NCBI GenBank assembly: GCA_963712165.1
Contig: CAVQGY010000002.1
Coordinates: 618,795 to 682,794, forward strand
DNA from: an uncultured Chloroflexia bacterium
GTDB lineage: Bacteria; Chloroflexota; Anaerolineae; Anaerolineales; UBA11858
Length of the DNA stretch: 64,000 bases
Direction: 5' to 3'
Part shown: positions 7,251-25,154 of the stretch, piece by piece
Position numbering within the stretch: position 1 is the stretch's first letter
How the letters are laid out: each line of letters opens with the position of its first letter
Notes under the pieces: generated by a model
Database searches by the model: none
Told to the model about the DNA's origin: nothing
The model's input: the letters and a program-made list of their open reading frames with translations, nothing else
Position numbers and translations under genes: made by a program

Positions 7251-7279
7251 CCATTCCTCTTAATAATTCACACGTAACC

Positions 7280-7456
7280 ACCAAGCGAAAGAGCTTCAGG
7301 AAGCATCCTATTGGGCTCCCGCAGCCGGGCCAATTTTTTATTTTCAATTTTCTATCTTCAATTCAAATCGGCTATCAGGTGGTCCCTCCTGAGACCGTCG
7401 ACTCTGACTTCTTCATCGCTCCTATTTGCCTTGCCAAAGGAGAGCGGTAGTTAGGT
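7280..7456 (-). repeat. degenerate attC with insertions in both arms
   Basis: GAGCTTCAGGAAGCATCC.., TTTTCAA loop, CAGGTGGTCCCTCCTGAG..GAGCGGTAGTTAGGT. Confidence 0.65.
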
Positions 7457-7461
7457 GGTTC

Positions 7462-7854
7462 TTAGTCTTCAGAGCACGATGCTTTTCTTGTTAGTTTATT
7501 TATTTTCCTGTAAAGAATAGAGATGTTTATTATTGAAATAATCAAAAGGAAAAAAAACATAAAAACGAGAGCGTATTCGCCGCTTTGTGCAAAATAACCT
7601 GGGCTATTCACTACTGTGTAACAGAGCATGCCTTGTGCAAAGGCCGATAATACCCACCATTCCTGTTTCGATGTCCGTAAAATTATACCCGTCACTATTA
7701 GCGCAATTGCTGTAATGAACTCGATGGCCAGATGAAAAGATATACTCACTGGAGTTGTTTCTAGCTCTGGGACATTACCGGTTGTCAAAAAAAACAACCA
7801 CTGGAAAAACATAAGGGCTCCAATCAACACAGAGCTGATCTTCACAAATTTCAT
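7462..7854 (-). CDS. hypothetical membrane protein (cassette)
   Basis: 130 aa, four hydrophobic segments. Confidence 0.7.
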   Translation of the reverse strand: MKFVKISSVLIGALMFFQWLFFLTTGNVPELETTPVSISFHLAIEFITAIALIVTGIILRTSKQEWWVLSAFAQGMLCYTVVNSPGYFAQSGEYALVFMFFFLLIISIINISILYRKINKLTRKASCSED

Positions 7855-7910
7855 ATTAGTTATCCTTGATAATATTTTTGATAAACATTATTTCGATTTT
7901 TTAACCTGTC

Positions 7911-8036
7911 CGCCTATCTTAAAAGCTCGCCTGATGCCGGGGCCAGTTTCATATAATTATAGAACCAACGCTAAAAAGGGGGAGTAATGATCGAGTAATT
8001 GGTTTGCCCAGCGCTCAGGTGGAGCGGGGGTTTTGT
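7911..8036 (-). repeat. degenerate attC
   Basis: AGCTCGCCTG...CTCAGGTGGAGCGGGGGTTTT. Confidence 0.55.
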
Positions 8037-8051
8037 TTGACCGGTGGTGGA

Positions 8052-8461
8052 TTATTCCTGAATCAAATACTCCGTATTTCTGACCGATAATCCATCAACG
8101 GGATGGTTATTAATCTCAATGATGAGACCGTTTTCCAGATTGAGGGGATAAACCTCGGACATAATGCCATCAACGCAGACCTGCACATCTATCCTGTTTC
8201 CTTCAATTTCTACTGTCTCAACAATCTGTTGGTCCGAGGAGCTGAGCCTGATCCTCAATCTCTTGAGTGCCTACCATGGAGAGGATCAAGCTGCCATTGA
8301 TAAAGATTTCAACCTCTTTATCAAGAAAGCCGTATCCAAGTCCTACTAGCAATTTCGCCAGGTAATTCCTGAACCAGGCCTTCTTGGGGCAGTACAGCGC
8401 ATCCTCCAAGAACGGAGATGGCAATTAATAACAAGATAAGCTTCTTTATTTTATTTAACAT
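8052..8461 (-). pseudogene. frameshifted lipoprotein-like gene
   Basis: Signal peptide MLNKIKK...LGGC followed by fragments in three frames (8321-8461, 8218-8424, 8052-8258). Confidence 0.5.
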
Positions 8462-8737
8462 AGCTGATGAGCCTCGCGAAGCGCCCTGAGTGGATACGAA
8501 GGGTTGCGAAACAGTCATTAGGGCACCCGCAGCAGGATTCAAGTAATCAGTAATCAGTCTGCCCGGTCGGAAGCTAAGCATCCACCGGTCTTCGGTCTCT
8601 TGGCCCCTGTCCAGAGCCCTTCACTTCGCTCAGGATAAACTCCGCGAAGAACCGGTCGTTCGCCCTTCAACTCGTTTCCTTCGCTCTAGCTCAGCTCAGG
8701 CAGGGAAAACCTGGCCGAAGGGGGGCGGGGGTTAGCC
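8458..8737 (-). repeat. expanded attC with nested insertions
   Basis: GATGAGCCTCGCGAAGC[CCCTGAG..CGAAGGG]..CACCCGCAGC...GCCGAAGGGGGGCGGGGGTTAGCC. Confidence 0.7.
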
Positions 8738-8746
8738 TACGTTCTC

Positions 8747-9412
8747 TTAGTGAACAGCATTTATAAACCATCCACCCACAGGTGAGGCGAAATTTAATAA
8801 AATATGAGCAAGTACAGTCCAGCGGATGGATCCGCTGGTTCTAGCCACCCAGCCCCAAACAAGTCCCAGGAGAATTGAAATCAGGGCAAATCTTAAAGTA
8901 TCGGCCGTTATCGTTCCAGAATCTACAATTTGGGGAGATAGATGCCAAAACCCAAACCAAATTGCTGGATAAAGATAACCCCAAAACAAATTTCCATTAA
9001 AAGCGACAACATAAGTTCCACGCCAGAGGATTTCTTCAAATGTTCCATTTGATATAGCATAGAAGAGCGAAAATAAAATAAACAGGGTAGTAGTCCCTTT
9101 GATGCTTGAGGAAAATTGAGTTAAGTATAGAAGGAGGGGGGGACCCGAGAGGAGGAGCAATCCCAGCCAGATCGGCTTGCCAAATTGCGGATCTGGTTTG
9201 CTAAACATTTCTCTTATTCCTTCAAGACCTACTGTGACCAAGGGTAACAAGAAACACCATACAAGCCAATAAAATATGAAACCAAATAGATAAGCTTTTT
9301 CACGACCAAGATTCGTGCTGAGATATCGGAAGAGAAAAAATGTTGAGACTAACAACACTGGAGGAGAGCCAAGAAGAATGTATTGTCTCGTATTAAACGA
9401 TGTAATCCCCAT
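8747..9412 (-). CDS. CPBP (Abi/CAAX) intramembrane metalloprotease
   Basis: EEILWRG, FGFWH, HxxxN motifs. Confidence 0.85.
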   Translation of the reverse strand: MGITSFNTRQYILLGSPPVLLVSTFFLFRYLSTNLGREKAYLFGFIFYWLVWCFLLPLVTVGLEGIREMFSKPDPQFGKPIWLGLLLLSGPPLLLYLTQFSSSIKGTTTLFILFSLFYAISNGTFEEILWRGTYVVAFNGNLFWGYLYPAIWFGFWHLSPQIVDSGTITADTLRFALISILLGLVWGWVARTSGSIRWTVLAHILLNFASPVGGWFINAVH

Positions 9413-9436
9413 AGGTAATACTCCAATCTTTAGGTA

Positions 9437-9710
9437 GGTTAACCGATGAGCTTTGCGAAGCATCTAGCCTGCGGGTAAGGGCACCTGCTCTGAGCGGACC
9501 CCGAGAACTTCGCTTCTCTCTGCATAAACTCCGCCGAGGGGGCAGTTGAAGAGTCAGGTGGTCCCTCCTGAGCCCTTCGACTCTGACTCCGTCATCGCTC
9601 CCTTCGCTATAACTCAGGGCAGGCAGGGTAAACCTAGCCGAAGGGGACCCCCCTGAGCAAAGCCGAAGGGGACCCTCCTGAGCAAAGCCGAAGGGGAGCG
9701 GGGGTTAGGT
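9437..9710 (-). repeat. expanded attC with nested and tandem micro-elements
   Basis: Insertions in both L boxes and loop; two tandem GACCCYCCTGAGCAAAGCCGAAGGG units at 9646-9695. Confidence 0.8.
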
Positions 9711-9726
9711 GGCAGTAAAAATCATT

Positions 9727-10383
9727 TCATCTATTCATTTCAGCCTTGGATTTTATAAAACGAATGATTGGAACCAAATAATAATTAAAAAAATAACTCG
9801 CTACTGCGATTAGCATTATGGTAAATACACTAAATCCGTTTTCTGCAATATCTCTTATAACTATATAAAGGACATAGCCGACAATTGCTAAACGAATAGC
9901 TATGGTCGTTGCAGAAAGAATAAGATCGGAATATTCAACTTCTATAGGAAGAGTAGTTTGTTCTTCCCAGGCAGGATTGCTCTTTAATCCAAAATGATAG
10001 TAAAGGTCATCTCTTGTGCTAACTTTGAGAATAACTCCAGTTGGGGCCTTAACTAATGTCGCTTCGGCAATAATGTTCAAAGGAATAAACCAGTTCCCAC
10101 AATGCAATCCATCTTCTGATAAGAACAGAACGCTTCGTCTCGCCTTCGCCCAACCCAGGCCAGGTCTGGTCTTGCAGTCGCTTTTCATCATTCTGGCTTT
10201 TGTAGCTCCTGCCGTTATAAGTTGTAGATCTGGATTTTTCCTCTCAAATTGCTTTACTTTCGTTGGTACATGATTAAACAGCGAAGTGCCTGATCTACGA
10301 GTTAACAACCAGATCACAGTGGTTGGAACAATAATAAGAAAAGCCATTGTGCCATAACATAAAAAATAACCATCTTCCATCAT
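9727..10383 (-). CDS. hypothetical membrane protein (cassette)
   Basis: Start moved to MMEDG with GGAG RBS; the longer ORF-track start lies inside attC. Confidence 0.65.
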   Translation of the reverse strand: MMEDGYFLCYGTMAFLIIVPTTVIWLLTRRSGTSLFNHVPTKVKQFERKNPDLQLITAGATKARMMKSDCKTRPGLGWAKARRSVLFLSEDGLHCGNWFIPLNIIAEATLVKAPTGVILKVSTRDDLYYHFGLKSNPAWEEQTTLPIEVEYSDLILSATTIAIRLAIVGYVLYIVIRDIAENGFSVFTIMLIAVASYFFNYYLVPIIRFIKSKAEMNR

Positions 10384-10409
10384 GTTCTCCTTGTAAATTG
10401 GGTTATGCC

Positions 10410-10610
10410 ACCTACTGGATGAGCTCACTTGTCCTGAGGCACGAAGGGTTGCGAAGCAGCTTCCCTGCTGGTAAGGGCACACGCGGCAGGATCTGTAATC
10501 AGTATACAGTATTCAGTGATAAGAATACACGGTCGGAAGCGAAGTTTCATCCGGTCTTCCGTCCTCGGTCCCGATCCACCGCAGGAGCTCAGGTGGATCG
10601 GGGGTTAGCT
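10410..10610 (-). repeat. attC with L-box insertion
   Basis: GGATGAGCTCAC[TTGTCCTGAGGCACGAAGGG..]...CAGGTGGATCGGGGGTTAGCT. Confidence 0.75.
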
Positions 10611-10796
10611 TGTGCACTCATCGTTCTTAACCCTAGAAATCAAATATTCAATCAGCTGGAAGGTATTGATCGCTGTGATTTCAACGCCAGGGTTGTTACG
10701 GGCAAATATTCCATCGGCAAATACTTGGCTTATTGATTCAATCCCGGGAAAATTGTCAGTTACGGAACTATTTCCCAGGTTAAATCGTGCTTTCAT
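10605..10796 (-). CDS. small hypothetical protein (mini-cassette)
   Basis: 63 aa ORF filling the interval between two attC; stop in R''. Confidence 0.5.
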   Translation of the reverse strand: MKARFNLGNSSVTDNFPGIESISQVFADGIFARNNPGVEITAINTFQLIEYLISRVKNDECTS

Positions 10797-10808
10797 AAAT
10801 CACCTGCG

Positions 10809-10867
10809 ATCTAACGGTTGAGTTGGGTGCAGTTTTCTGTAGGGGCGCCTCCCAGTAGGCCTTAGAT
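10809..10867 (-). repeat. short degenerate attC
   Basis: ATCTAACGGTTGAG...CCTTAGAT, ~59 bp. Confidence 0.45.
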
Positions 10868-11466
10868 TATTGGGTTTCCAGGTTCGATACCTCGTCATAA
10901 ACCTTTTGTCCCTTTAAAGAGGACACTCCGCCTGAAACCATGAAAGCCATTGCTCTTCCACTGTCTATTTCAAGTGGCGTAATTTGTTCTCTGTTGGCAA
11001 TGATCACAAACCCGCCCAGGTTGAAAGCTTGAGGAACGTACACCGCAACGCTATCTGCTGCACCTAGGTCCGACAAGAACTCTCTAGTAATAAACCCCAT
11101 AAACTGGATGCCACTTCCAGGCAGGAGCGAGACCATCACAGGCTGATTAAACTGCTTTTCATCCCCAACGAATGCGCTCATCATATCCTTAACAGAGGAA
11201 TAGATCATCTTTCCGACAGGCATACGGTTAAATAGGTTGTCGATGAGGTTTGTTAAGCTCCTAGCAAGAACTGTAGAGACAAGGAAGCCAGTAATAGTGA
11301 CCAGCGACAACATGAGCAGAAAACCCAAACCCGGGATATCAAAATCAAATACTTGATCAATCCTTAAGAAGACTATATATAGGACGTAGACAGTTGCGAC
11401 TATTGGGATGAGAAATAATAAACCTTGACCGAAGTATGCAGCAATTTTTTTCACGGATCCTCCCAT
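10867..11466 (-). CDS. DUF502 domain membrane protein
   Basis: YSSVKD, GFIT, AVYVPQAFN.GG, AMAFMVSGG. Confidence 0.85.
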   Translation of the reverse strand: MGGSVKKIAAYFGQGLLFLIPIVATVYVLYIVFLRIDQVFDFDIPGLGFLLMLSLVTITGFLVSTVLARSLTNLIDNLFNRMPVGKMIYSSVKDMMSAFVGDEKQFNQPVMVSLLPGSGIQFMGFITREFLSDLGAADSVAVYVPQAFNLGGFVIIANREQITPLEIDSGRAMAFMVSGGVSSLKGQKVYDEVSNLETQ

Positions 11467-11518
11467 GATTGGTAATTTTGGTAGACTTACTGCCTAGACT
11501 GGATTCTAAGTAACCCGA

Positions 11519-11647
11519 TTTTTACGGATGAGCTCACTTGTCCTGAGGAACGAAGGGTCGCGAAGCATCCTTTAGCTCACCCGCAGTCGGGCCCAATTTT
11601 TAAATTTTCATTTCACCCAGGCTTTCAGGTGGACTCGGGGGTTATTA
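11519..11647 (-). repeat. attC with L-box insertion
   Basis: GGATGAGCT[CACTTGTCCTGAGGAACGAAGGG]TCGCGAAGCATCCTTTAGCTCACCCGCAG...GGTGGACTCGGGGGTTAT. Confidence 0.75.
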
Positions 11648-12136
11648 TATTTCCTCTCCTGTATCTGGCAAATCTTGATCTTCTGTTGTTAATTCTTTGA
11701 TCATCCGGACACTATCTAGTGGACGATCTGTATATAAACTCACATAGTCCCAACCTAAGACTTGATAGAATGGCACTGCAGTCAAACTCGCGTCAAGCCA
11801 AAGACCATCCACATTATGAGCGATGGCATCCTCGTATGCATGCTCCATTAACATAGTTCCAATACCTTGTCTGGAGAATTCAGGTTCAACACAAATAGAA
11901 CAAAGCTCATTCGTTTCAGGGTACCAGCGAACATACCCTAGCAATCTTCCGCCATCTTCAGCTATAAAAACCCGCTGTGTTTCCAAACGCCAATAATATT
12001 TTTCCAGGGGGCTTTTATTGATCCACTCCTCTAATTGCTGGATTGTATAGTCGTCTCGACACAGCTCCATTACAGCTCGGTCATGAAGCTCTTTCATTTT
12101 TTGGACATCATCAATAACTGCTTTCCTGATGATCAT
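11645..12136 (-). CDS. GNAT family N-acetyltransferase
   Basis: V.P...RQGIG..L, ASLTAVPFY..LG. Confidence 0.85.
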   Translation of the reverse strand: MIIRKAVIDDVQKMKELHDRAVMELCRDDYTIQQLEEWINKSPLEKYYWRLETQRVFIAEDGGRLLGYVRWYPETNELCSICVEPEFSRQGIGTMLMEHAYEDAIAHNVDGLWLDASLTAVPFYQVLGWDYVSLYTDRPLDSVRMIKELTTEDQDLPDTGEEI

Positions 12137-12156
12137 TGTGGATCGACTTTTTAGAA

Positions 12157-12196
12157 CGTAGCGGATGAGATTTTCATAGGGGAGCTTGTGTTAGAC
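12157..12196 (-). repeat. collapsed attC remnant
   Basis: GCGGATGAG...GGAGCTTGTGTTAGAC; central part deleted. Confidence 0.4.
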
Positions 12197-12231
12197 CGCC
12201 AGTGATTAATCGTGGCGTCTATCTGCCTTCG

Positions 12232-12789
12232 TCATTTTGTTTTACATGTCCATAACACAAAACTTACATCTTCAGATTTGATTTCTTTCTGTTCAACTAA
12301 GTCAAATCCTGTAGATTCTAAGGTCTGTTTGAGAGATTTAAGCGATCGATTCGCGCCTGGGACTCCCTTGTCTTTGGCAATAATAAAACTTCCTGAGGGT
12401 ACCAGGATGCGTTGGACCTCTTTCAAACCTTGGTGAAGATCATGCCAATGATCAACTGAGTCGAAAGCAAAGACAAGATTGGCGATGTTATCATCAACTG
12501 GTATTTCTTCTGCTGATCCTACCTTGAAATCGATCTGATAATCAACCTCATGTTTTTCTGTCAATTCTTTTGCGATCTCGATCATTCGTGGTACAGGGTC
12601 AATCCCGATCAAGGTGCCATCTTTGACCCTGGCCGCTGCATGGCGAAGGGCGGATCCAGTACCACAACCCACATCAATGATAGTTGAATGATCAGGTAGG
12701 TCTATATTCTCTACAGCCAATTTATTGGTGGGGTAATCACCATAGTTAGCTGCGTACCATTCCGCTGTTTCCGAATTCCATTCAGTCAT
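12232..12789 (-). CDS. class I SAM-dependent methyltransferase
   Basis: IIDVGCGTG, GIDP, RILVPSG. Confidence 0.9.
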   Translation of the reverse strand: MTEWNSETAEWYAANYGDYPTNKLAVENIDLPDHSTIIDVGCGTGSALRHAAARVKDGTLIGIDPVPRMIEIAKELTEKHEVDYQIDFKVGSAEEIPVDDNIANLVFAFDSVDHWHDLHQGLKEVQRILVPSGSFIIAKDKGVPGANRSLKSLKQTLESTGFDLVEQKEIKSEDVSFVLWTCKTK

Positions 12790-12816
12790 AGTTTTTTAAG
12801 ATGGTCGTTCTATGGG

Positions 12817-12895
12817 AGGTGCCCTTTGCCTTCGCTTTCCTCATCAGGCTCGGGACAGGAAGGACAGGCCAGTCGAAGGGGAGCTGAAGTTGGGC
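12817..12895 (-). repeat. half attC remnant with micro-element
   Basis: AGGTGCCC...GTCGAAGGGGAGCTGAAGTTGGGC. Confidence 0.4.
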
Positions 12896-12904
12896 AGCAG
12901 ACAC

Positions 12905-13801
12905 CTACTCGCTTCTCTGCAGTAAATATTCATCAAAAAACCCTACCACACGCTCCTCGTACTTAATAGGATACATGGGGTACATTCCTACATGGTTCAC
13001 ACCAGCTTCAGTCCATAAATAGCGGGGATCTCCTGAAGCATCATACAGGCGCTTTGCAGAATCTGCGGGTATCATGCCATCCGCTTCTCCCTGGATGATC
13101 ATTACTGGTCGAGGACTTATCGCTCTAATTCGATCTACCGGACGCAACATTTCTACCTTCACCCCGGTTTCTTTCTCAGCAAAGAATCGGATAAATGGCA
13201 AGAATATCCTGCTTGATACCGCCCATCTCAGTTCATCTTCCAGTGTGGGAAAGGCGCTATCCACTATCACAGCCTCTATCTCAAGGCGCCTCGATGCCAG
13301 CTCCAGCACTGCCACTCCCCCCATAGAACTTCCCCAGGCTCCGATATGCTCCACGCCTGCCTGGCGCAAAGCGTACTCTAACGCAGCCTCCACATCCAAT
13401 GCTTCATAATATCCTAATGTGCTCAGTTCTCCACCGCTATCACCATGTGCCCGAAAATCCCATGCCAGGACCCCGTATCCATTACGCGCATATAGCACAT
13501 ATTGGTCTACAGACCGCTTATCCCCATGACCATGGGCAACCAAAATCAGCGCTCCGTTTACTGGAGGTGTATACCACGCTGCCAGCTCTATCCCATCAAC
13601 AGTGACCAATTGAATATTTTCGTAGTCAATCCCATATACATCTGGTGTTTTGTTATCTAAAAGTTGGTTTCGTTGTGGATGTAAGTATCTTGAAGTGCTG
13701 TTAAAAGATGCGAATGCAATACTCCCGATAAACAATCCGCATAATACGATCAGGCCAAAGGAGAACAGATTGAACCAATACCGCCAACCCTTATTCTTCA
13801 T
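12905..13801 (-). CDS. membrane-anchored alpha/beta hydrolase
   Basis: DFRAHGDS, GSSMGG nucleophile elbow, QGEAD, catalytic His. Confidence 0.9.
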   Translation of the reverse strand: MKNKGWRYWFNLFSFGLIVLCGLFIGSIAFASFNSTSRYLHPQRNQLLDNKTPDVYGIDYENIQLVTVDGIELAAWYTPPVNGALILVAHGHGDKRSVDQYVLYARNGYGVLAWDFRAHGDSGGELSTLGYYEALDVEAALEYALRQAGVEHIGAWGSSMGGVAVLELASRRLEIEAVIVDSAFPTLEDELRWAVSSRIFLPFIRFFAEKETGVKVEMLRPVDRIRAISPRPVMIIQGEADGMIPADSAKRLYDASGDPRYLWTEAGVNHVGMYPMYPIKYEERVVGFFDEYLLQRSE

Positions 13802-13827
13802 TTATTCCTTCATTCCATATGTGGACT

Positions 13828-13970
13828 GGCTAACGGATGAGCTTCGCGAAGTATCTTTTGGGCACCTAGTGTCAGGACCAGCTGTTATTGATTATAGATC
13901 AGAAACCAAAAAGGTTATAAGAGTTAGAATGCCCAGGGAGCGAGGAGATCAGGTATTGCGGGTCTTGGGT
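13828..13970 (-). repeat. degenerate attC with L-box insertion
   Basis: GGCTAACGGATGAGCT[TCGCGAAGTATCTTTTGGG]CACC...TCAGGTATTGCGGGTCTTGGG. Confidence 0.6.
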
Positions 13971-13992
13971 GGTTTTGGTGCTGAAAGGCACC

Positions 13993-17522: not shown

Positions 17523-17580
17523 GGCTAACTGAAGAGCTCACCTGGCGGCGGTGCTAGTCAGCTGCGACGATCTATTATGT
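17523..17580 (-). repeat. short attC (degenerate)
   Basis: GGCTAAC..GAGCTCACCTGGC..GTCAGCTG...ATTATGT. Confidence 0.55.
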
Positions 17581-17583
17581 GTT

Positions 17584-17955: not shown

Positions 17956-18054
17956 TTATTAACCTCCTCGTTTGAAGCTCGGGCTGGGAAAGACAGACCA
18001 AGTAGTCCCACTAGGATAAGAGAATAAAATTACCTCACCGCATACTTCCTAGAC

Positions 18055-18326
18055 ACATAACGGATGAGCTCACTTGTCCTGAGGCACGAAGGGTTGCGAA
18101 GCATCTACCCTGCGGGTAAGGGCACCTGCTCTGAGCGGACCCCGAGAACTTCGCTTCGCTCTGCATAAACTCCGCCGAGGGGGCAGTTGAAGAGTCAGGT
18201 GGTCCCTTCTGAGCCCTTCGACTCTGACTCCGTCATCGCTCCCTTCGCTATAACTCAGGGCAGGCAGGGTAAACCTAGCCGAAGGGGACCCCCCTGAGCA
18301 AAGCCGAAGGGGAGCGGAGGTTAGCT
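18055..18326 (-). repeat. fully expanded attC (inserts in both L boxes and loop)
   Basis: 272 bp from ACATAAC to GTTAGCT; right part near-identical to 9437-9710. Confidence 0.85.
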
Positions 18327-18335
18327 GACTAATTG

Positions 18336-18647
18336 TTAGTCCTTATGGCCAAGCACATTCTCTGCTCGGGCCAGAAGGGAATCGAGGTTTTTGTATGTAT
18401 CTTCTGCCCTTTTGGCGACTTTACAAATGACAACAACTACTTCATTATCAAATATTGCATAAATAATCCGATACTGCCCTTGTCTAACCCGATATAAACG
18501 TTCTTCAAGTTTTACACAACCGGACGGCCTCGGATCTTCGCGAAGAGAGCGCATGGAAGTGACCACGCGCTCCAGTTGTTTTTTAGGTATTCGTATTAGC
18601 TGTTTTTCAACCTTGTGATGGATTTTTAGCGTATACCTTGGAGTCAT
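18336..18647 (-). CDS. relE: RelE/ParE family toxin
   Basis: L..DPRP.G..KL, YRVRQGQYRIIY.I. Confidence 0.85.
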   Translation of the reverse strand: MTPRYTLKIHHKVEKQLIRIPKKQLERVVTSMRSLREDPRPSGCVKLEERLYRVRQGQYRIIYAIFDNEVVVVICKVAKRAEDTYKNLDSLLARAENVLGHKD

Positions 18648-18904
18648 TGACCAATCCGCTCAAATACTTCTTCAGCATCTAATGCAACGTCAGGGTTTTC
18701 CATGTACTCTGCAATAGCCTGGCGACCATCAAGTAGATCTTCTAGGAGTTCAACTCGTTCAACTAAACTATCAAAAAGCTCAGGATCGATTAGCATAGCC
18801 TTAGGTTTGCTGTGAGAAAGTACCAGGAGAGGTCCATCTTCCAAGGAAGTTAGTAAAGATGATAAATCTGATCTTAGCTCGGAAACAGTAGTTGTCCTAA
18901 ACAT
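18644..18904 (-). CDS. Phd/YefM family antitoxin
   Basis: T.SELRS.LS.LL, P..V...KP.A; 4-nt overlap with toxin. Confidence 0.85.
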   Translation of the reverse strand: MFRTTTVSELRSDLSSLLTSLEDGPLLVLSHSKPKAMLIDPELFDSLVERVELLEDLLDGRQAIAEYMENPDVALDAEEVFERIGQ

Positions 18905-18917
18905 AGTCACCCTCATA

Positions 18918-18976
18918 ATGTACATAAATAATAATGAATTACGTACGCATTATATAACAAGAAAGGGGATTGTCAA
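18918..18976 (-). promoter_or_regulatory. TA promoter TTGACA-N16-TATAAT with TGTACA/CGTACG palindromes
   Basis: tgtcaa 18971-76 and attata 18949-54 on +; atgtacat 18918-25 resembles the yefM-yoeB operator core. Confidence 0.65.
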
Positions 18977-18999
18977 GGATTTTAAGTGTATGGATTGGC

Positions 19000-19216
19000 A
19001 GCTAACGGATGAGTTCACCCGTCCTGAGCGGAGCCCGAGCACTTCGCTTCGCTCTGCATAAACTCCGCCGAGGGGGCAGTTGAAGAGTCAGGTGGTCCCT
19101 CCTGAGCCCTTCGACTCTGACTCCGTCATCGTTCCCTTCGCTATAACTCAGGGCAGGCAGGGTAAACCTAGCCGAAGGGGACCTCCTGAGCAAAGCCGAA
19201 GGAGCGGGGGTTAGGC
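19000..19216 (-). repeat. expanded attC with nested insertions
   Basis: Same loop and L-box insert as 18055-18326. Confidence 0.85.
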
Positions 19217-19219
19217 AGA

Positions 19220-20032
19220 TCACATTCCCCAAAAAAGATAGAAGATCACTGCTTGTGGCCCATAATTCATTATGCCATGTAAGAGTGCTGGCGCAATAAC
19301 ACCTTCACTTTTTTCACGAACTAATCCAAAAAACAGACCCGCAATAATCGTCCATATAACGTGAGGCCAATTCAGCGTTCCAGAAAACCAGCCTGCGTGC
19401 CAAAAACCAAAAAGGATAGAGCTGATTATCAATCCCCATCCCCAACGAATTCCAAAAAACTGTTTGGGCTGGCCAAAAGCCGAATCAAGTCGAGATTGAA
19501 TATATCCCCGGAACAAGATTTCTTCACTCAAGGCAACAAGCAGGTAGAAATAAATAATTGAGACAATGACACTTCCTAGCCTCGACGAAATCTGTGTCAG
19601 CATTGGAAACAGTAATAAACTGGACCCAGCCCCGATTTTTTGCCGAACGGGCTGTTTATGGCGGACCATCCAAGCAAACCAGATAAGCAGCCCAATTTCG
19701 ATTGAGGAAATCAGGATTACGCCAACCCACTGCGTCCAATCTATCCAACTTAGAACGACACTTAACGTAAAAACGGGAAAGAAGCCCAGCTTGATGATTT
19801 CACCTTGATATGCCAATTTCTCCCGCATAGAGTTATCTTTTTGTTTTCGACAACTGATCAAGTAAATTGGGATTGATATCAACAGAAGAGTAGCATATCC
19901 TGCGATATGGTAACCGCCAAAAGAGTGGCTTATATTCGCGGCAACGGGATTTGATTGTATGGCCCAGAAAATATTAACCAACAAGAGGAAAATTAAGCTT
20001 ACTTCAATAACGGCAAGTATTTTAGATTTCAT
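19220..20032 (-). CDS. CPBP (Abi/CAAX) intramembrane metalloprotease
   Basis: EEILFRG, FGFWH, HGIMN. Confidence 0.85.
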   Translation of the reverse strand: MKSKILAVIEVSLIFLLLVNIFWAIQSNPVAANISHSFGGYHIAGYATLLLISIPIYLISCRKQKDNSMREKLAYQGEIIKLGFFPVFTLSVVLSWIDWTQWVGVILISSIEIGLLIWFAWMVRHKQPVRQKIGAGSSLLLFPMLTQISSRLGSVIVSIIYFYLLVALSEEILFRGYIQSRLDSAFGQPKQFFGIRWGWGLIISSILFGFWHAGWFSGTLNWPHVIWTIIAGLFFGLVREKSEGVIAPALLHGIMNYGPQAVIFYLFWGM

Positions 20033-20047
20033 CTCAATTAATTATGG

Positions 20048-20105
20048 ACCTGACGGATGAGCTCAGCGGTGTGTACACCAGCGTCCGCTGCAGTGCGGGT
20101 TAGGC
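20048..20105 (-). repeat. short 58-bp attC
   Basis: GAGCTCAGCGG..CCGCTGCAGTGCGGGTTAGGC; sibling of 35714-35771. Confidence 0.75.
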
Positions 20106-20113
20106 AGAATCCA

Positions 20114-20770
20114 TTAATCCGCAAGCCCAACCTCGCGAGCAAGATCATCATAAAATGCGATCTGAGCTTCTATCCTCTCTTTAGCCCAAAATCCTGAAAT
20201 GTCGAAATAAAAAGAATCGGGAAGATCAGTAAATTTCTTTGTATTATCTTTACCAAACTGGGCTATCTCGCGGAATCCCATGATCTTGTCGGGAAATGCA
20301 GGAATACCACACATGAATGCAGCAATACTGACTGCACCTACCTTGGACAATTTATCTGCATCCCAGAGAATTCGTGCATCTTCCGCATCTTCGGGAATAG
20401 TTCTAGGTGGATTAGAATGATTAGCCACGCAATAACATACTGCTTCTACTTTGTCTTCTGGGAAACCGAGCGAGGCGAGATGCTCGCGTGCCCATTGTTC
20501 GGCTTCAGCAGGATGATTATTGTCCTGGTATTGTGGCTGAAACCGATCATGGATCCATACCGAAGCAATAACAACTTCCTCGTCTCCGCCAACTAATTCC
20601 ATCAATCGTGTAGCATCTCTTTCTACCTGCAAGACATGCTCAAGCCGATAATTGAAATATGGGGGATTGTCAGGTGTAGAGCCAGGCCAATGGCTATGAG
20701 CGGCTTCTCGTGTGATCGATTCCAAATCAGATCGCAAGATTGCTAGCCATTCACTGGTTATACTTCTCAT
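20114..20770 (-). CDS. HD domain protein
   Basis: EH..V, WIHD, ILWDADKL. Confidence 0.85.
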   Translation of the reverse strand: MRSITSEWLAILRSDLESITREAAHSHWPGSTPDNPPYFNYRLEHVLQVERDATRLMELVGGDEEVVIASVWIHDRFQPQYQDNNHPAEAEQWAREHLASLGFPEDKVEAVCYCVANHSNPPRTIPEDAEDARILWDADKLSKVGAVSIAAFMCGIPAFPDKIMGFREIAQFGKDNTKKFTDLPDSFYFDISGFWAKERIEAQIAFYDDLAREVGLAD

Positions 20771-20814
20771 GCCTGTTCCTTGATTCGACTATAAAAAGAT
20801 GAATATAGAATTCT

Positions 20815-20951
20815 ACCTAACGGATGAGCTCACCCGCAGCCACATAATTAGTATAAAGCAAAAAGTCAGCAGGTCTTGTTATTAAAGATTTATTACACAT
20901 CGCTTTTAATGGCCACCGCGACTTGGCTGTCGGGTGGAGCGTGGGTTATGT
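20815..20951 (-). repeat. attC
   Basis: Canonical arms, no insertion. Confidence 0.9.
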
Positions 20952-21335
20952 ACTCGATCTAGATTCACTTTCATAACTATCAGATACAAGATGAAAGTGA
21001 AGTTGATCAACTTCTTGGGCATTGCCACCATTAGCAATTAAACGATATCCAAAACTATCTAGGCCAAACCTCTGAACCAGCTCTTTTACAGCCTCAAATA
21101 AGCCAGATTCAAATCCAGAGTCATCTGATGGCAAGTCCATTAATGATCTGAACTTGGCTTTTGGAACGATAAGAATATGGAGTGGATATGATGGAGATGG
21201 ATGATAGAAAGCAATCAGTGTATTGGTCTCAATCAGTTTCTCGCCCGGGATCGCAAAACTAAAATAAGCAATGATCCAGTGTAGGATCAAGCCGCCTAAC
21301 CAGGTTTTAGCGATCGAATACAGGAAACGGTTCAT
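20946..21335 (-). CDS. HIT domain protein
   Basis: HILIVPK, GYRLIANGG..QEV.QLHFHLV. Confidence 0.85.
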   Translation of the reverse strand: MNRFLYSIAKTWLGGLILHWIIAYFSFAIPGEKLIETNTLIAFYHPSPSYPLHILIVPKAKFRSLMDLPSDDSGFESGLFEAVKELVQRFGLDSFGYRLIANGGNAQEVDQLHFHLVSDSYESESRSST

Positions 21336-21360
21336 GTTTTTAGAGAGTTAAGCCTAATGT

Positions 21361-21470
21361 ACATAACGGATGAGCTCAGCGGCTCTTAGCGGACCCCGAG
21401 CACTTCGCTTCTCTCTGCATAAACTCCGCCGAGGGGGCAGGCGAAGAGTCAGGTTGAGCGGGGGTTATGT
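21361..21470 (-). repeat. attC with expanded loop
   Basis: ACATAACGGATGAGCTC...GTCAGGTTGAGCGGGGGTTATGT. Confidence 0.8.
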
Positions 21471-22448
21471 TGCTTCATGTGTTCTAGAGCGTTTAAGAAT
21501 TTTCTGTGCTGCTAATGTGACCCATCTTGACGGGTCCTTCTTTTGTCCGAATTCCCAAGTTTTCCAATCCATCCAAATTGATCCAGCTGTAAATCTGCCA
21601 ATTTCATCAGCCTTTTGATTTATCACTTCAATCATTTCGTGCAATCGGTGGTCTTCCAGTGTCCAAGGTATTTGCGTCAATACGTCCGCGACATGTAATA
21701 TGTCGTACCAAATCAATGGTGCTTTCATTTTAGAAAAATCTGTTCCCATCGCAAATAAATAGGGACGCCTTTCTTTTCTCTGCTCCCAAAGGGATAATAT
21801 TGTTTCTACCCCGATTTTTACTGCTGGATTTTTATATTGATCAGGAAACTGTGTTAATAATTGCAGCATCACCAAAGTAGCATATGGACACGGGTCAGAT
21901 ATCCTTCCAGGCCCCCTGAATTTTCCCAAAACTGGAGAAACAGAGCATGGCCATCCATTGTCTCTATGCAATTCAACAAGATAATTGACTGCATTCTGAA
22001 CTTGGGTTGTCTTTCCTTCTCCGAATTTCACTAGAGAATACGCAACTAATGGTGCATCACAAAGCATCCATGCATACTGATCTTCTCCTGTTCCACCATA
22101 TCCAGGTTTAATATTTACTAATACCTGGAACTGGTTTTCGGGTGATTGATATTGTTTTATACGCTTGATGATTTTGGCAATTCCGGGATCATTTGCCTTC
22201 AATCCAATATCTGCCAGAAAGCCAAGTTTATGTAGATGATGGCCAGCCTTTTTATGTGATTTCAAGATTGGACCGGGCCAATCTGATAATTCGGTTATTA
22301 AGTTTTGGATTTCGGGATTGGATAAGGTTGCATTATATGCATTTATTACTTGGGGTTCGTTTTCTGCCTGATCAAGCAAATCTAGACGCGTGCGATATTC
22401 TATCCAGGGTTCTCCATCTAATAACCAACTGATCAATTCTTCATTCAT
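21465..22448 (-). CDS. hypothetical protein, prenyltransferase-like alpha/alpha fold
   Basis: ISWLL.GEPWIEY, DNGWPC, PSRWVT pattern. Confidence 0.7.
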   Translation of the reverse strand: MNEELISWLLDGEPWIEYRTRLDLLDQAENEPQVINAYNATLSNPEIQNLITELSDWPGPILKSHKKAGHHLHKLGFLADIGLKANDPGIAKIIKRIKQYQSPENQFQVLVNIKPGYGGTGEDQYAWMLCDAPLVAYSLVKFGEGKTTQVQNAVNYLVELHRDNGWPCSVSPVLGKFRGPGRISDPCPYATLVMLQLLTQFPDQYKNPAVKIGVETILSLWEQRKERRPYLFAMGTDFSKMKAPLIWYDILHVADVLTQIPWTLEDHRLHEMIEVINQKADEIGRFTAGSIWMDWKTWEFGQKKDPSRWVTLAAQKILKRSRTHEAT

Positions 22449-22486
22449 TAATTCTCGTCCTTTTGACAGGAAAAATCCTTATAGCA

Positions 22487-22721
22487 ACATAACGGATGAG
22501 CTCACTTGTCCTGAGGCACGAAGGGTTGCGAAGCATCTACCCTGCGGGTAAGGGCACCCGCATCCGGGTCCAATTTTCAATTTTCAATTTTCAATCTCCA
22601 ATTCATCCCGGCTGTCAGGTGGTCCCTCCTTCGCCCTTCGATTCTGACCCCATCATCCCTCCCTTTGTTGTAGCTCAGGGCAGGCAGGGTGAACCTGGCC
22701 GAAGGGGAGCGCAGGTTAGGC
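22487..22721 (-). repeat. expanded attC, inserts in both L boxes
   Basis: Left insert as 18055, TTTTCAA loop, right nested insert. Confidence 0.85.
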
Positions 22722-22732
22722 GGTATCTTTAA

Positions 22733-23245
22733 TCATTCTTCTTTATCAAAAAACAATTCCTTAATCGGTGGACCATCATCAATCAGAACCAGCTGATTAT
22801 TTCGTATTTCTACGCGATCAACAAATAATAAATCTTGAATAAATTGAGAGCTATCATACTTCGTAACTAAAACCCTGGAATAATCAGAGATCTGTTTATA
22901 TCCTTTTGGACAGCTTTCTAAAGAGGATTCGATTCTAGTAATATCAAGCCTGCCTCTTGGTCCCAACTTTAAATCGCCATGATAAGTATTGCATCCATCA
23001 TAACCATATATTGATTCGGGTTGAAAGATCACAGATTGTTCGTTCCAATAATAGACAATATCAATATTCGATTCCTGATCAATACTTGGTGCTCGTTTTC
23101 CATCCACCAAAACACTGGCTAGCTTCCATTCACCCTCCAAGGAGTTCCTGTACATAATTTGATCATTAAAAACGAAAATATATATTCCGATGGAAAATAT
23201 TGCTGCTGCGATAATTCCTAAGAGAATATACAAACGCTTTTTCAT
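22733..23245 (-). CDS. META domain protein
   Basis: W.L.S, GYDGCNTY.G, S.L..C. Confidence 0.75.
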   Translation of the reverse strand: MKKRLYILLGIIAAAIFSIGIYIFVFNDQIMYRNSLEGEWKLASVLVDGKRAPSIDQESNIDIVYYWNEQSVIFQPESIYGYDGCNTYHGDLKLGPRGRLDITRIESSLESCPKGYKQISDYSRVLVTKYDSSQFIQDLLFVDRVEIRNNQLVLIDDGPPIKELFFDKEE

Positions 23246-23255
23246 GAATATATTC

Positions 23256-23463
23256 GCCTAACGGATGAGCTAACTTGGCGCCGGGCCAATTTTTAATTTT
23301 CAATTTTCAATCTTCAATTCATCCCGGCTGTAGGGTGGTCCCTCCTGAGCCCTTCGTCTCTGACTCCATCATCGCTCACTTTGTTATAACTCAGGGCAGG
23401 CAGGGTAAACCTGGCCGAAGGGGACCCTCCTGAGCGAAGTCGAAGAGGAGCTGGGGGTTACGG
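23256..23463 (-). repeat. expanded attC with nested insertion
   Basis: Right L box carries nested insert plus GACCCTCCTGAGCGAAGTCGAAGA. Confidence 0.8.
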
Positions 23464-23491
23464 TGCATATAAAAATAATAACTTATGGTTC

Positions 23492-24190
23492 TCAAAATGC
23501 TTGATTGTATCGTTGCCTAAGTTCTTCCTCAGAGATCAAAGGTCGACTGATCATTTCAAGAGATTTGTGGTTCAAAACACCTTTTTGGATAAATTCGCTG
23601 CCAATCTTTCTTAATTCTTCCAAAATCTCTTCCCCGTCATTGGTGTATTGACCTTCCTGCTTCATAGCAAATGCATGGGGTCTGAGAACTGCCCCACTGA
23701 ATTCCACGCTTGCATTTTCGGCTAGTTCTTCAACGATGCGAACTACAGTGCTCATGTTTTCCTTTTCCCACCAGCCACCGGTTGATACTAAAACGAGCTT
23801 CTTAATGTTCACTCCCGGCCGAAAACGGGCTCTTGTGCGATCTTGGCGAAACTCAAGATAAGGTTCCACTAATGGACATAGACGATTGATAAAATTTTGC
23901 ATGGCGCCAGGAAGTGGGATGTAAACAGGTGTGGCAATGATGAGAATAGCAGCTTCCTTTAATTTTGGGTAGAGTATTTGCATACCATCATCAAAGCAAC
24001 AATTTCCTGGGCTCTCGTACCAACAATACATACTCCCGCAAGAGCATGGTTTGATTTCTAATTTACTGGCATAGAATAATTCAACTTCTGCTCCAGCATC
24101 AGTTATGCCTTGAATGAAGGGAGAAAGGACCGCAGCTGTATTTCCCTTACCTTTTCGGGGACTCCCATTAATTGCCAATACTTTTACCAT
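23492..24190 (-). CDS. flavodoxin family protein (NADPH-dependent FMN reductase-like, Cys-rich)
   Basis: INGSPRKG.GNT, C.C...C, ATPVY. Confidence 0.9.
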   Translation of the reverse strand: MVKVLAINGSPRKGKGNTAAVLSPFIQGITDAGAEVELFYASKLEIKPCSCGSMYCWYESPGNCCFDDGMQILYPKLKEAAILIIATPVYIPLPGAMQNFINRLCPLVEPYLEFRQDRTRARFRPGVNIKKLVLVSTGGWWEKENMSTVVRIVEELAENASVEFSGAVLRPHAFAMKQEGQYTNDGEEILEELRKIGSEFIQKGVLNHKSLEMISRPLISEEELRQRYNQAF

Positions 24191-24223
24191 ATTAGCCTCC
24201 TTGGAGAGTTATATTACTTTTGC

Positions 24224-24338
24224 GCCAAACGGGTGAGCTCACCTGGCGCTGGGGCTAGCTGTCAATGATTATAGATGAAGAACCAATAATGGGGATTAAA
24301 GACCGGAGCCTGGCGTTCAGGCGCAGCGGGGGTTATGT
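24224..24338 (-). repeat. attC (divergent)
   Basis: GCCAAACGGGTGAGCTCACCTG...CAGGCGCAGCGGGGGTTATGT. Confidence 0.7.
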
Positions 24339-24347
24339 GCAAAATGC

Positions 24348-24926
24348 CTATGGATAAGGTCTAACCAGGTAGTATCCATAAGCGATGACTTCCCTGAATA
24401 TTGAGTAAATATCTCTAAGGCCAAAATAATATGCGTGAGCGGAGTAGACAGATCCCAAATCAAACTTACTACAAGCCAGTTTTATTCTTGGTATGTGGAA
24501 ATAGTTAGATATGACCATAACACTAGACAGATTATTTTTTTCCATGATCTGGAGGGAGTTCTCAACGGTCATGAAAGTATTCATCCCATTATTATCAACA
24601 AGTAAATTGGACTCGGGAATTCCTTGTGATACTAGGTAATCCTTCATGACTAAAGCTTCATTAAATCCTTCTTTTCCCAAACCACCACTCACAATAACCT
24701 TTTCAAAGTAGTTGGTGCTATATAGTTGAATAGTCCGGTTTAAGCGGGATAAGAGACGTGCAGATGGTTCCCCTGATGGCATTACTTTATTTCCGAAGAC
24801 TAATCCAACATCAGCTGGCCCTAACTCATCAGTGAGTCCATCCCATATGATTAATCCAGCTGATAAAGCAAACAAGATTGACGCAGCTAGAGTAATTACC
24901 TTGGCCTTCCTTTTCCAAGTTTTCAT
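24348..24926 (-). CDS. YdcF/SanA (DUF218) family protein
   Basis: VFG, IVSGG, EA..M, SNYFHIPR, RE. Confidence 0.88.
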   Translation of the reverse strand: MKTWKRKAKVITLAASILFALSAGLIIWDGLTDELGPADVGLVFGNKVMPSGEPSARLLSRLNRTIQLYSTNYFEKVIVSGGLGKEGFNEALVMKDYLVSQGIPESNLLVDNNGMNTFMTVENSLQIMEKNNLSSVMVISNYFHIPRIKLACSKFDLGSVYSAHAYYFGLRDIYSIFREVIAYGYYLVRPYP

Positions 24927-24933
24927 TTTTTTC

Positions 24934-25154
24934 TCCTAACGGATGAGCTTCGCGAAGCATCCTTTAGGGCACCTGCAGCCGGCTCCAATTTTTAATTTTC
25001 AACCTTCAATTCATCCCGGCTGTCTGGTGGTCCCTCCAGAGCCCTTCAACTCTGACCCCATCATCGCTCCCTTCGTTATAACTCAGGACAGGCGTGGCAA
25101 ACCTGGTCGAAGGGGACCCTCCTGAGCAAAGCCGAAGGTGAGCGTTGATTAGGA
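24934..25154 (-). repeat. expanded attC, inserts in both L boxes
   Basis: GAGCT[TCGCGAAGCATCCTTTAGGG]CACC... nested right insert; R'' mutated. Confidence 0.8.

Follow-up and report, generated by a model that had tools for sequence, protein, structure and literature searches.

Short nested modules in the attC sites of a chromosomal integron from an uncultured Anaerolineae-type bacterium

High identity among the attC sites of a chromosomal array is established (PMC5371416 and PMC4889954), and the length range for described attC given in PMC5371416 is 57-141 bp. How a cassette acquires its attC is unsolved, and the chief reason for placing cassette creation in the host of the array is how alike the attC within chromosomal arrays are. 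Elements that target attC, such as IS1111-attC insertion sequences and group IIC-attC introns, are kilobase-sized and encode a transposase or reverse transcriptase. Heterocyst-forming cyanobacteria carry very small mobile repeated elements of about 20-30 nt, which are dispersed and nested in one another. The locus analyzed here lies in a 64,000-nt stretch of genomic DNA (the window). Like the sedentary VCR-type arrays of Vibrio, it has a divergent integron integrase, a putative attI, dozens of cassettes including toxin-antitoxin pairs, and an attC skeleton that is specific to the lineage and comprises an R box, an unpaired spacer, an L box, and two extrahelical bases. Our preferred explanation, held with modest confidence, is that these are module-bearing attC of a sedentary integron, and that modules have passed from one attC of the array to another by copying or exchange.

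The integron and its attC sites

By its sequence, the window holds a canonical chromosomal integron. The full-length intI product matches the integron integrase model TIGR02249 (443 bits, cut-off 265) over residues 6-319 of 329, as expected of an integron-type tyrosine recombinase IntI, and in Pfam it matches Phage_integrase and Phage_int_SAM_4. Cassettes ending in attC form an array beside the putative attI and divergent from intI (Table 1), and the attI-like block upstream of intI is kept in position and sequence in relatives L021 and L104. The host is an uncultured Anaerolineae-type (Chloroflexota) bacterium, and the region is the intI-distal half of its sedentary chromosomal integron. The attI-proximal cassette has its boundary at CTAAC, and the IntI of the species with the identical cassette is 83% identical in protein and 77% in DNA. 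No Rfam model matched window positions 1-52000 at gathering score.

The genus-wide attC skeleton reads CTAAC GGATGAGCTCACCYGCAGCCGGG (loop) CCGGCTGTCRGGTGGAGCGGGGG TTAGG. The fold of simple sites runs from the R box through an unpaired spacer and the L box to the stem, and on the 3' arm one T and one G bulge out; R''/R' (RYYYAAC ... GTTRRRY) and L''/L' pairing with extrahelical bases is seen in simple sites 27493 and 47359. Twelve of the 51 sites reach 172-278 nt because short modules occupy three fixed places, and these 12 depart from both the described length and an appreciable recombinogenic fold. Median predicted pfold, a thermodynamic prediction under simple constraints, is 0.069 for 28 sites of up to 150 nt (11 of 39 short sites, which had no anchors, were excluded) versus 3.9e-7 for the 12 longer sites (p=4e-4); single values are 7e-10 for 18057 and 0.064 for 16150. 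The inserts are thus predicted to lower strongly the probability of the recombinogenic fold, and with folding so lowered, insert-laden cassettes would probably move poorly. There is no significant increase in attC length away from intI (Spearman rho 0.22, p=0.13, n=51).

Table 1. Positions of the integron features and of individual attC sites in the window
Feature	Position	Strand	Description
intI, integron integrase	50237..51226	+	divergent from the cassette array
Putative attI region	50097..50150	-	CTAAC/GTTAATTATC...GCGCGATA...TTAGGCGTTAT
Cassette array	3200..49441	-	51 catalogued attC-like sites; + strand is the attC bottom strand
attI-proximal cassette	49342..50006	-	shares all 665 nt, including the attC, with another species' cassette (100% identity)
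Reference "empty" attC	27493..27587	+	95 nt, TTTTCAA loop, no insert; canonical fold, pfold 0.71
attC with fullest nest	18057..18325	+	269 nt; left insert, CTCTGAG loop, R0, R1, R2
Modules of 18057, left arm and loop	L1 18074-18093, L2 18094-18125	+	unit-A loop split by R0 18140-18190
Modules of 18057, right arm	R1 18202-18286, R2 18287-18311	+	
attC	9439..9709	+	L2, CTCTGAG loop, R0, R1, two tandem R2 units
attC	19002..19215	+	CTCTGAG loop, R0, R1, R2; no left insert
attC	22489..22720	+	L1, L2, TTTTCAA loop, R1; left arm identical to 18057
attC	23258..23463	+	TTTTCAA loop, R1, R2
attC	24936..25153	+	short left insert (L2b), TTTTCAA loop, R1, R2
Decayed attC	7280..7456	+	TTTTCAA loop, first half of R1
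Longest attC	8460..8737	+	278 nt; AGTAATC loop, left inserts, and divergent modules resembling R0 and R1
attC	10412..10609	+	L1, L2, AGTAATC loop
attC	16150..16348	+	L1, L2, AGTAATC loop only
attC	16929..17041	+	L1, L2, undivided unit-A loop (CTCTGAGCGGAGACGAAGAG), an "empty" R0 site
attC	21363..21469	+	unit-A loop split by R0; no R1, no left insert
R4 zone (right insert, 20 nt)	25530..30306	+	attC 25530, 26252, 30193
R3 zone (right insert, 24 nt)	30897..35020	+	attC 30897, 32458, 34205, 34875; three loop types

Modules within attC

The modules are non-coding, 20-85 nt long, and located at three fixed hot spots: the left arm, the right arm, and the terminal loop. The left-insert junction is GAGCT^CAC and the right-insert junction GGTG^GAGC; both are identical across all copies, and the two arm hot spots face each other, flanking the extrahelical G of the L box. 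The attC sites named in a first-pass annotation of this DNA are all real and lie within 2-4 nt of where it had placed them. It correctly gave the module combinations of 22489, 18057, 19002, and 16150, as well as a left insert common to 10412, 16150, 16929, 18057, and 22489. This insert is 52 nt long and consists of L1 (20 nt) and L2 (32 nt), both present at all five sites with 85.5-100% pairwise identity, attC left end included. At 9439 only L2 is present, and at 11521 L1 is accompanied by a short variant of L2.

The right insert R1 is 85 nt long. Its nhmmer profile found six full-length places only in the whole genome (E 2.7e-27 to 6.2e-24), at window positions 9561, 18202, 19095, 22622, 23338, and 25030, and partial copies at 7382, 8661, and 3236. 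The copy at 7382 covers profile positions 1-46 (E 1.1e-5), which agrees with the description of its attC, 7280, as decayed. R1 had been called nearly identical at six sites; it is present at all six, but near identity is confined to 9439, 18057, and 19002 (97.6-98.8%), and every pair involving 22489, 23258, or 24936 is 82.4-92.9% identical. By Pfam, the six attC that carry R1 lie next to unrelated genes, as had been noted (no family, ParE/Phd, Rce1-like, META, FMN_red, and no family).

Most modules are versions of one unit of about 20 nt, unit A (CCTGAGCGAAGTCGAAGGG-like), with further units nested in its centre at a constant position. R1 is a unit-A-type shell with two inner layers, and R0 is an inner unit that is found within unit A outside integrons, too. 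Undivided and divided unit-A states of one site are seen in 16929 versus 18057, and again in the sister genome G007 versus window attC 3200, where the right-arm unit A holds a nested piece of about 41 nt and the orthologous G007 unit A is undivided. By themselves the modules are not unusually structured (z -1.6 to +1.0), and therefore no structural reason for nesting was found. Filled and empty states also occur on one backbone: 27493 is empty, 28118 has only a left insert, and 30897 only R3, and by eye the three share an identical 40-nt TTTTCAA loop with 1-4 substitutions elsewhere.

Unit A and R0 occur at many unrelated loci, unlike L1, L2, and full R1. The strict unit-A pattern is found 23 times in the genome versus a mean of 0.5 in 20 shuffles (about 46-fold), with 8 copies within the array and 15 outside, so that it is about 33-fold denser in the array (8 in 47 kb versus 15 in 2.93 Mb elsewhere). 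As a dispersed repeat, R0 is found across the genus and mostly not in attC. Outside the integron this genome has one copy (C1:55519, E 2.7e-13), and R0 was matched in 10 of 24 congeners; of the 12 copies examined in sister genomes, 10 are more than 300 nt from any attC anchor. By eye, most printed sister copies, including both attC-borne ones, are flanked by unit-A-like halves (CCTGAG../..CGAAGGG), and R0 sits between CCTGAGCGAA- and GTCGAAGGG-type halves in attC and in most printed non-attC copies. The two attC-borne sister copies have another position or the opposite orientation compared to this genome. Whether the nest exists free outside attC had been raised in the first-pass annotation; searches of this genome found no copy of L1, L2, or full R1 there, while the inner R0 is free and dispersed.

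Such modules could be non-autonomous mini-elements that insert independently and site-specifically at the L-box bulge or the unit-A centre, in which case nests would be shared through recurrent insertion and not through copying from attC to attC. The constant junctions, the filled and empty states, the excess of unit A over shuffled sequence, and the presence of R0 with its unit-A shell outside attC, in both orientations and at attC positions differing between species, are in line with homing of this kind. Yet no target-site duplication was seen, and homing would require a nest of three layers to be reassembled, or transferred whole, six times. No candidate mobilising gene was found either: the genome has four Y1_Tnp matches, three of them clear genes, and the flanks of these three hold other hairpin repeats and neither unit A nor R0. 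The confinement of L1, L2, and full R1 to attC also counts against homing, and since it leaves other attC as the only possible donors, homing and conversion are hard to separate. We consider independent insertion unlikely as the source of the shared nests.

Mosaic attC and position in the array

Comparison of attC 18057 and 22489 supports mosaicism: their left arms agree at 69 of 69 positions and their R1 at 72 of 85 (Fisher p=3e-4), and their loops differ, so that 18057 has the sequence features of a left/right chimera. The left insert and R1 are found together, each without the other, and both absent, which bears out part of the earlier proposal that the modules combine independently; R1 subtype, however, is tied to the loop. 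The near-identical R1 trio all have the CTCTGAG loop and R0, and the divergent trio all have the TTTTCAA loop. This congruence fits co-inheritance of loop and right arm as well as conversion.

Chimeric joins at the repeated attC skeletons may have arisen during assembly, and the mosaic combinations would then have no counterpart in the cell. This is a metagenome-type assembly, short-read contigs break inside attC, and positions 18092-18258 are unspanned among the pieces listed. We regard such an artefact as very improbable, given that the assembly has only 5 contigs for 2.98 Mb and that arrays of five other genomes have the same modular pattern. Moreover, one independent contig joins the L1-bearing left end of 18057 to unique flank (17357-18091) and another joins the R1/R2 end to the ParE cassette (18259-19005), both with no differences. 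Public contigs for the region break at repeats or attC, which bears on insertion polymorphism; in the public runs holding it, which are short contigs breaking at attC, neither a conversion event nor an insert polymorphism was directly seen.

Inserts follow array position, not loop family, in two species. In this genome (G000), 13 of the 28 sites up to position 28.2 kb have a left insert versus none of 23 nearer intI (p=8e-5), and R3 occurs in four sites within six consecutive ranks (clustering P=0.0014 for all 51 sites, P=0.005 for the distal 37). Outward from intI the right-arm zones have no insert, then R3, then R4, then R1/R2. In sister genome G003, one left insert occurs in 9 of 12 distal versus 0 of 9 proximal attC (p=0.001); it spans at least four loop families, and proximal attC have the same loop families without it.

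The zones could be age strata, or blocks from other lineages. New cassettes might copy a current attC master, with zones recording age and inserts dating genesis, and the first-pass annotation had suggested templating onto new genes. Successive zones of right-arm inserts fit this, as do the three R0+R1+R2 arms, near-identical beside unrelated genes, and homogeneous attC in chromosomal integrons have been taken as a sign that cassettes are created locally (PMC4889954). The G003 distribution does not favour it: an insert found across at least four loop families, which also occur insert-free, would need a separate master for each family, and thus many in parallel. The chimeric 18057 and the shared cassettes described below, with different attC in sister species, also argue against templating, and we judge it a rather improbable source of the zones.

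Left inserts occur at the same attC spot in the arrays of the five sister species examined. Among nine cassettes shared with sister genomes, which could be paralogues or independent captures rather than orthologues, six, at 71-91% nucleotide identity, have unrelated attC interiors, one is 100% identical including attC, and two are not comparable. The HigB/HTH cassette has R3 in this genome, as do its neighbours, and has none in G007; a G002 cassette related to that of 8460 has a simple 122-nt attC. Together with the 18057/22489 arms and the four left-insert/R1 combinations, the six cassettes uphold the earlier view that attC are mosaic and changed after formation. Its use of inserts to barcode the genesis of cassettes is weakened by them: gene and attC interior do not remain together, and therefore inserts record attC history and array position.

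Most likely, then, attC have been rewritten after formation, and inserts track attC history rather than cassette genesis. Under our preferred explanation of copying or exchange within the array, a module present in one attC would reach other attC of that array through the conserved skeleton. The copying mechanism is one that we infer; possible routes are gene conversion over short patches, a switch of template from one folded attC to another, and crossing-over in which cassettes are lost. The outcome would be mosaic sites and zones of neighbouring cassettes that share an arm insert, whatever their gene or loop. More specifically, and tentatively, the attC-only modules (L1/L2, R1, R3, R4) may have spread to neighbours by short-patch copying between folded sites, rewriting attC in place as a form of array concerted evolution; we find this plausible and stop short of adopting it. 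A point against copying is that the hot spots are flanked by no more than about 13-27 nt of skeleton homology, a short length for RecA-type recombination.

Significance and comparison with known systems

With attC in which distinct modules can be recognised at fixed places, this genus is a natural experiment. Modules that follow position, and different attC on shared cassettes, suggest that attC similarity can arise after capture. If in-place rewriting is true, attC homogeneity need not imply cassette creation in that host, and the attC fold would tolerate a branch, or have one targeted to it, at the extrahelical G of the L box. The modules about double the known attC length and put branches at the extrahelical G, which makes these sites suitable substrates for tests of integron integrase tolerance. 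Software for finding attC has default length limits, and these may overlook such long sites.

REP/BIME repeats mobilised by RAYT (Y1) transposases are likewise short, intergenic, and combinatorial, and Y1_Tnp genes are present in this genome; unlike REP/RAYT systems, none of the three clear Y1 genes here is flanked by unit A or R0, and the modules are not stable hairpins alone. IS1111-attC and group IIC-attC elements also place foreign DNA at a defined position inside attC, whereas the inserts here are 20-85 nt, non-coding, and nested. The small dispersed repeats of cyanobacteria resemble the present units in being about 20-30 nt, genome-dispersed, and mutually nested; to our knowledge the sequences are unrelated, and the units here are concentrated in the array. 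Compared to Vibrio VCR-type arrays, attC here are up to 278 nt long versus 57-141 bp in the range given in PMC5371416, and both the arm inserts at the L-box bulge and the terminal structure contribute the extra length. This array has several loop families side by side, and its arm inserts are zoned along it.

Integron, cassette array, and insert anatomy

The source genome (G000) consists of 2.98 Mb in five contigs with approximately 50% G+C, and the window is positions 618795-682794 of its contig C2. The nearest relatives of its integron integrase in the genome collection are from MAGs labelled Chloroflexia, Anaerolineales, or Anaerolineae (83, 70, and 68% identity). Cassettes in the array are typical: they encode ParE/Phd, three HigB/HTH pairs, PIN/RHH, GNAT enzymes, a methyltransferase, and hydrolases, and many of the products have no Pfam family. 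The AbiTii and the two SMI1/KNR4 (SUKH) cassettes are of types linked with defence or immunity functions. The stretch bounded by CTAAC could be a remnant cassette that has no gene, or else a secondary insertion site, and the composite site looks as if two sites had fused and a cassette had been lost. The catalogue of attC and the module calls used here are our own curation.

Features of the integron and modules inserted in its attC (attC are named by start position)
Feature	Position or sites	Length	Strand	Description
Integron integrase gene (intI)	50237-51226		+	ORF; TIGR02249 443 bits (cut-off 265); Pfam Phage_integrase, SAM_4
Cassette array	3200 to 49441		-	Divergent from intI; 51 catalogued attC-like sites
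Left insert L1 + L2	five attC	20 nt + 32 nt
Right insert R1	six full copies	85 nt
Right insert R2		25 nt		0-2 copies in tandem
Right insert R3	attC 30897, 32458, 34205, 34875	24 nt
Right insert R4	attC 25530, 26252, 30193	20 nt
Cassette	26663-27478			APH-family phosphotransferase domain
Cassette	39413-40177			AbiTii domain
Cassettes	41948-42661, 43690-44160			SMI1/KNR4 (SUKH) domain in each
Array stretch with no recognisable attC	35770-39269	3.5 kb		Alpha/beta-hydrolase fragment, 481-aa ORF of no family, ECF-type sigma factor (Sigma70_r2/r4)
Composite site	48418-48589			Left part of CCACCTTAAC-loop attC running straight into a second attC with AATGATTATAG loop
Stretch with CTAAC at both ends	50007-50104	~95 nt		Separates the first cassette from the conserved attI block

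Simple attC, 95-125 nt long, have the + strand sequence CTAAC GGATGAGCTCACCYGCAGCCGGG (loop) CCGGCTGTCRGGTGGAGCGGGGG TTAGG. The folded site consists of R box, unpaired spacer, L box, and stem, and one T and one G bulge out of its 3' arm. These bulges, together with gene orientation, identify the + strand as the bottom strand of attC. Inserts occupy three constant positions. On the left, they come after GAGCT and before CAC; on the right, they separate GGTG from GAGC. When the site folds, these two points lie opposite one another where the L box has its extrahelical G. The terminal loop is the third position. L1, R2, R3, R4, and the CTCTGAG "loop" are versions of one repeat unit of about 20 nt, unit A (CCTGAGCGAAGTCGAAGGG-like). 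The module R0 (51 nt) divides the unit-A loop in attC 9439, 18057, 19002, and 21363, and attC 16929 has the same loop undivided. R1 can be read as a unit-A-like shell (GTCCCTCCTGAG...CCGAAGGG) enclosing inner layers, one of which recurs as a 34-nt piece at C5:281231, so the "multi-layer nest" of the first-pass annotation is a fair description. Clean filled and empty states are seen in three attC that, by eye, have an identical 40-nt TTTTCAA loop with one to four substitutions elsewhere: 27493 has no insert, 28118 has just a left insert, and 30897 has R3 alone.

Predicted folding was compared by forcing the R box and three L-box pairs and comparing ensemble energies. Median probability of the recombinogenic fold was 0.069 for 28 scorable sites of ≤150 nt and 3.9e-7 for 12 longer sites (Mann-Whitney p=4e-4; 11 short sites without anchors were left out), and a lower probability is predicted for long attC. 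Large terminal structures reportedly hinder this fold, and published attC lengths are 57-141 bp (PMC5371416). Length of attC had no significant correlation with distance from intI (rho 0.22, p=0.13), and no Rfam family matched in window positions 1-52000. Modules are not self-contained hairpins, as their DNA folds no better than shuffles (z = -1.63 for L1+L2, +1.02 for R0, -0.86/-0.69 for R1, -0.26 for R2, and -0.35 for R3); the idea that GCGAAGC mini-hairpins explain them was dropped as well.

A fold-back origin of the left insert, by copying of the left end of the same attC, was also considered at 12 sites, two of which had no anchor. Significance was limited to the short variant at 24936. 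This short left insert (..GCATCCTTTAGG; 24936-24975), also present at G000:C2:1008212-1008260, shows complementarity to the left end of its attC (CCTAACGGATG.GC), with 10/11 matching at 24936 (P=0.006). Complementarity was marginal at one CALIN site (P=0.07) and absent from the other eight scorable sites: seven were at shuffle level, and the match at 11521 (P=0.022) is on its own stem, outside the insert. Fold-back origin is only a lead. The short left insert pairs with the R box in the minimum-energy fold, so it could be a decoy that locks the site.

Mosaic attC and their position along the array

In the whole genome, six full R1 copies were detected (E 2.7e-27 to 6.2e-24), all at the attC where the first-pass annotation had placed them as nearly identical. 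Copies from attC 9439, 18057, and 19002 are 97.6-98.8% identical, but pairs that include 22489, 23258, or 24936 are 82.4-92.9% identical, so near-identity is true of half of the copies. Partial copies are at 7382, 8661, and 3236. As had been claimed, genes beside the R1-bearing attC are unrelated, L1 and L2 occur together at each of the five attC assigned the left insert, and the listed combinations of left insert, loop, and right insert are correct in the catalogue. R1 subtype tracks loop family, which counts against independent combination of the modules. All four combinations of left insert and R1 are present. Between attC 18057 and 22489, left arms are identical (69/69), loops differ, and R1 matches at 72/85 positions (Fisher p=3e-4).

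Mis-assembly is a rival explanation for such chimeras, and the genomes compared are metagenome assemblies. Part of the region is present in nine public sequencing runs, the best four of which carry the label marine sediment metagenome. Of the words sampled from window positions 16000-25500, 48-76% are in marine sediment metagenome runs, and 5-14% are in runs of three other studies with the labels sediment, freshwater sediment, or marine sediment. Contigs from four runs examined are short and all end in attC, and the sides of the joints listed are 20-24 nt and within repeats.

Inserts follow array position. Left inserts are in 13 of the 28 sites at positions up to 28.2 kb; the 23 sites nearer intI have none (p=8e-5). 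The four R3 sites have three loop types and fall within six consecutive ranks (P=0.0014, or 0.005 for the distal 37 alone). R4 is also clustered (P=0.02; 0.04), and clustering of R1, R0, and R2 is weak (P=0.02-0.15). One left insert of the sister genome G003 occurs in 9 of 12 distal attC of at least four loop families, compared to 0 of 9 proximal attC with the same families (p=0.001). A rival explanation is that each module homes site-specifically.

Modules outside attC and in sister species

The first-pass annotation had set the occurrence of the complete nested insert as a free unit outside attC against copying. This differs by module: R0 is free outside the integron, but all copies of L1, L2, and full-length R1 in the source genome are in attC. 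One strong R0 copy is at C1:55519-55565 (E 2.7e-13). BLAST of attC 18057 against 41 genomes gave matches in 14 of 24 congeners and in none of 16 genomes from the order's other families; its R0 part matches 10 congeners, often on several contigs each. Ten of 12 R0 copies in fetched loci have no attC anchor within 300 nt, and most of those printed are flanked by unit-A-like halves (by eye). Of the two attC-borne copies, one lies in a left-arm unit (G021) and the other, in reverse orientation, in the loop (G019), unlike those of the source genome. R1 was not found by BLAST in 40 other genomes, and an exact 23-mer of it had one match in metagenome contigs, in a non-attC intergenic region of another organism, with sharing limited to the 23-mer.

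Unit A (strict pattern) occurs 23 times in the source genome, compared to a mean of 0.5 in 20 shuffles; 8 of these fall in the array, and of the 15 beyond it, two belong to a small integrase-less attC cluster. Eighty integron loci of other lineages had one strict match in 0.99 Mb, so colonisation is not general to integrons. Weaker matches to loop families outside the array (E<0.01) number four for AGTAATC, three for CCGGTC, and nine for TTTTCAA, the family made of four to five heptamer repeats (AATTTTC/TTTTCAA) at 22569-22608, 27521-27560, and other positions. Mobilisation of the RAYT/IS200 type was rejected because flanks of the Y1_Tnp genes carry unrelated repeats, and no transposase linked to the modules was found.

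Several other elements were observed on contig C2. Long "CAGTAATCAGTG..." loops occur in the integrase-less cluster (C2:1006400-1009900) of at least four attC, as does a unit-A right insert, again at GGTG^GAGC, and a weak Y1_Tnp match was noted with this cluster at C2:1011458. A solitary degenerate attC at C2:76330-76450 bears two left inserts. A repeat family of about 145 nt with a unit-A-like core (TCCTGAGG....CGAAGGGCCGCAG.CGAAGAGGCGG) is at C2:5250-5550, 14050-14350, 26650-27050, and 293000-294100; its copies are tandem or paired, and at 293.4-293.7 kb they border a small ORF.

Skeleton and loop families are shared by the arrays of five sister genomes (G002, G003, G005, G007, and G021), which as kin do not count as independent samples. 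Their left inserts are lineage-typical variants at the same point, and some of these arrays have unit-A-type right inserts, also at the same point. The left insert is therefore an old attC feature found across the genus, and it did not invade the source genome recently.

Nine window cassettes have relatives in the fetched arrays, with orthology assumed from 71-91% identity. In the comparison of attC on shared cassettes, proposed as a check on copying, interiors differ in six of nine, one is identical, and two could not be compared because the window has no recognisable attC there. In the six (gene identity 71-91%), the attC have only the skeleton ends in common, and forced alignments are 23-60% identical over the longer site. 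In the source genome, the HigB/HTH cassette has R3, as do its neighbours; in G007, the copy of this cassette has a different loop together with a left insert. The right-arm unit A of the amine-oxidase cassette is undivided in G007 and has a nested piece of about 41 nt in the source genome. The differing attC of the six shared cassettes speak against the rival explanation of cassette genesis from successive attC masters.

The attI-proximal cassette (49342-50006) contains a 183-aa ORF of no Pfam family and a 98-nt attC. It is 100% identical over 665 nt, including attC, to L021:2543-3207 from a relative's MAG, and identity ends at the CTAAC box; intI of that MAG is 77% identical in DNA to the window intI. 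Judged from these sequences, this suggests that the cassette was captured recently and that the integron is active.

Proposed origin and relation to known integrons

Three steps make up the best-supported account. Short units from a repeat vocabulary particular to the genus would insert into attC at three permissive points, one nesting inside another; composites found only in attC would then spread or be exchanged among attC of one array via the conserved skeleton; and this spread would produce chimeras and zones. We infer the copying step between attC, for which gene conversion, template switching between folded sites, and crossing-over with cassette loss are candidate mechanisms.

A literature search of titles and abstracts found none on nested short repeats inside attC. 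Within the same scope, no earlier description was found of attC up to 278 nt with nested modules at the L-box bulge, module zoning along arrays in two species, one module common to attC and dispersed repeats outside integrons, or shared cassettes with differing attC interiors. The system itself belongs to the sedentary chromosomal integrons, a known kind. Their within-array attC homogeneity has been described and read as local cassette creation (PMC4889954; PMC5371416), and taxon-specific attC are likewise in print (PMC8352920).
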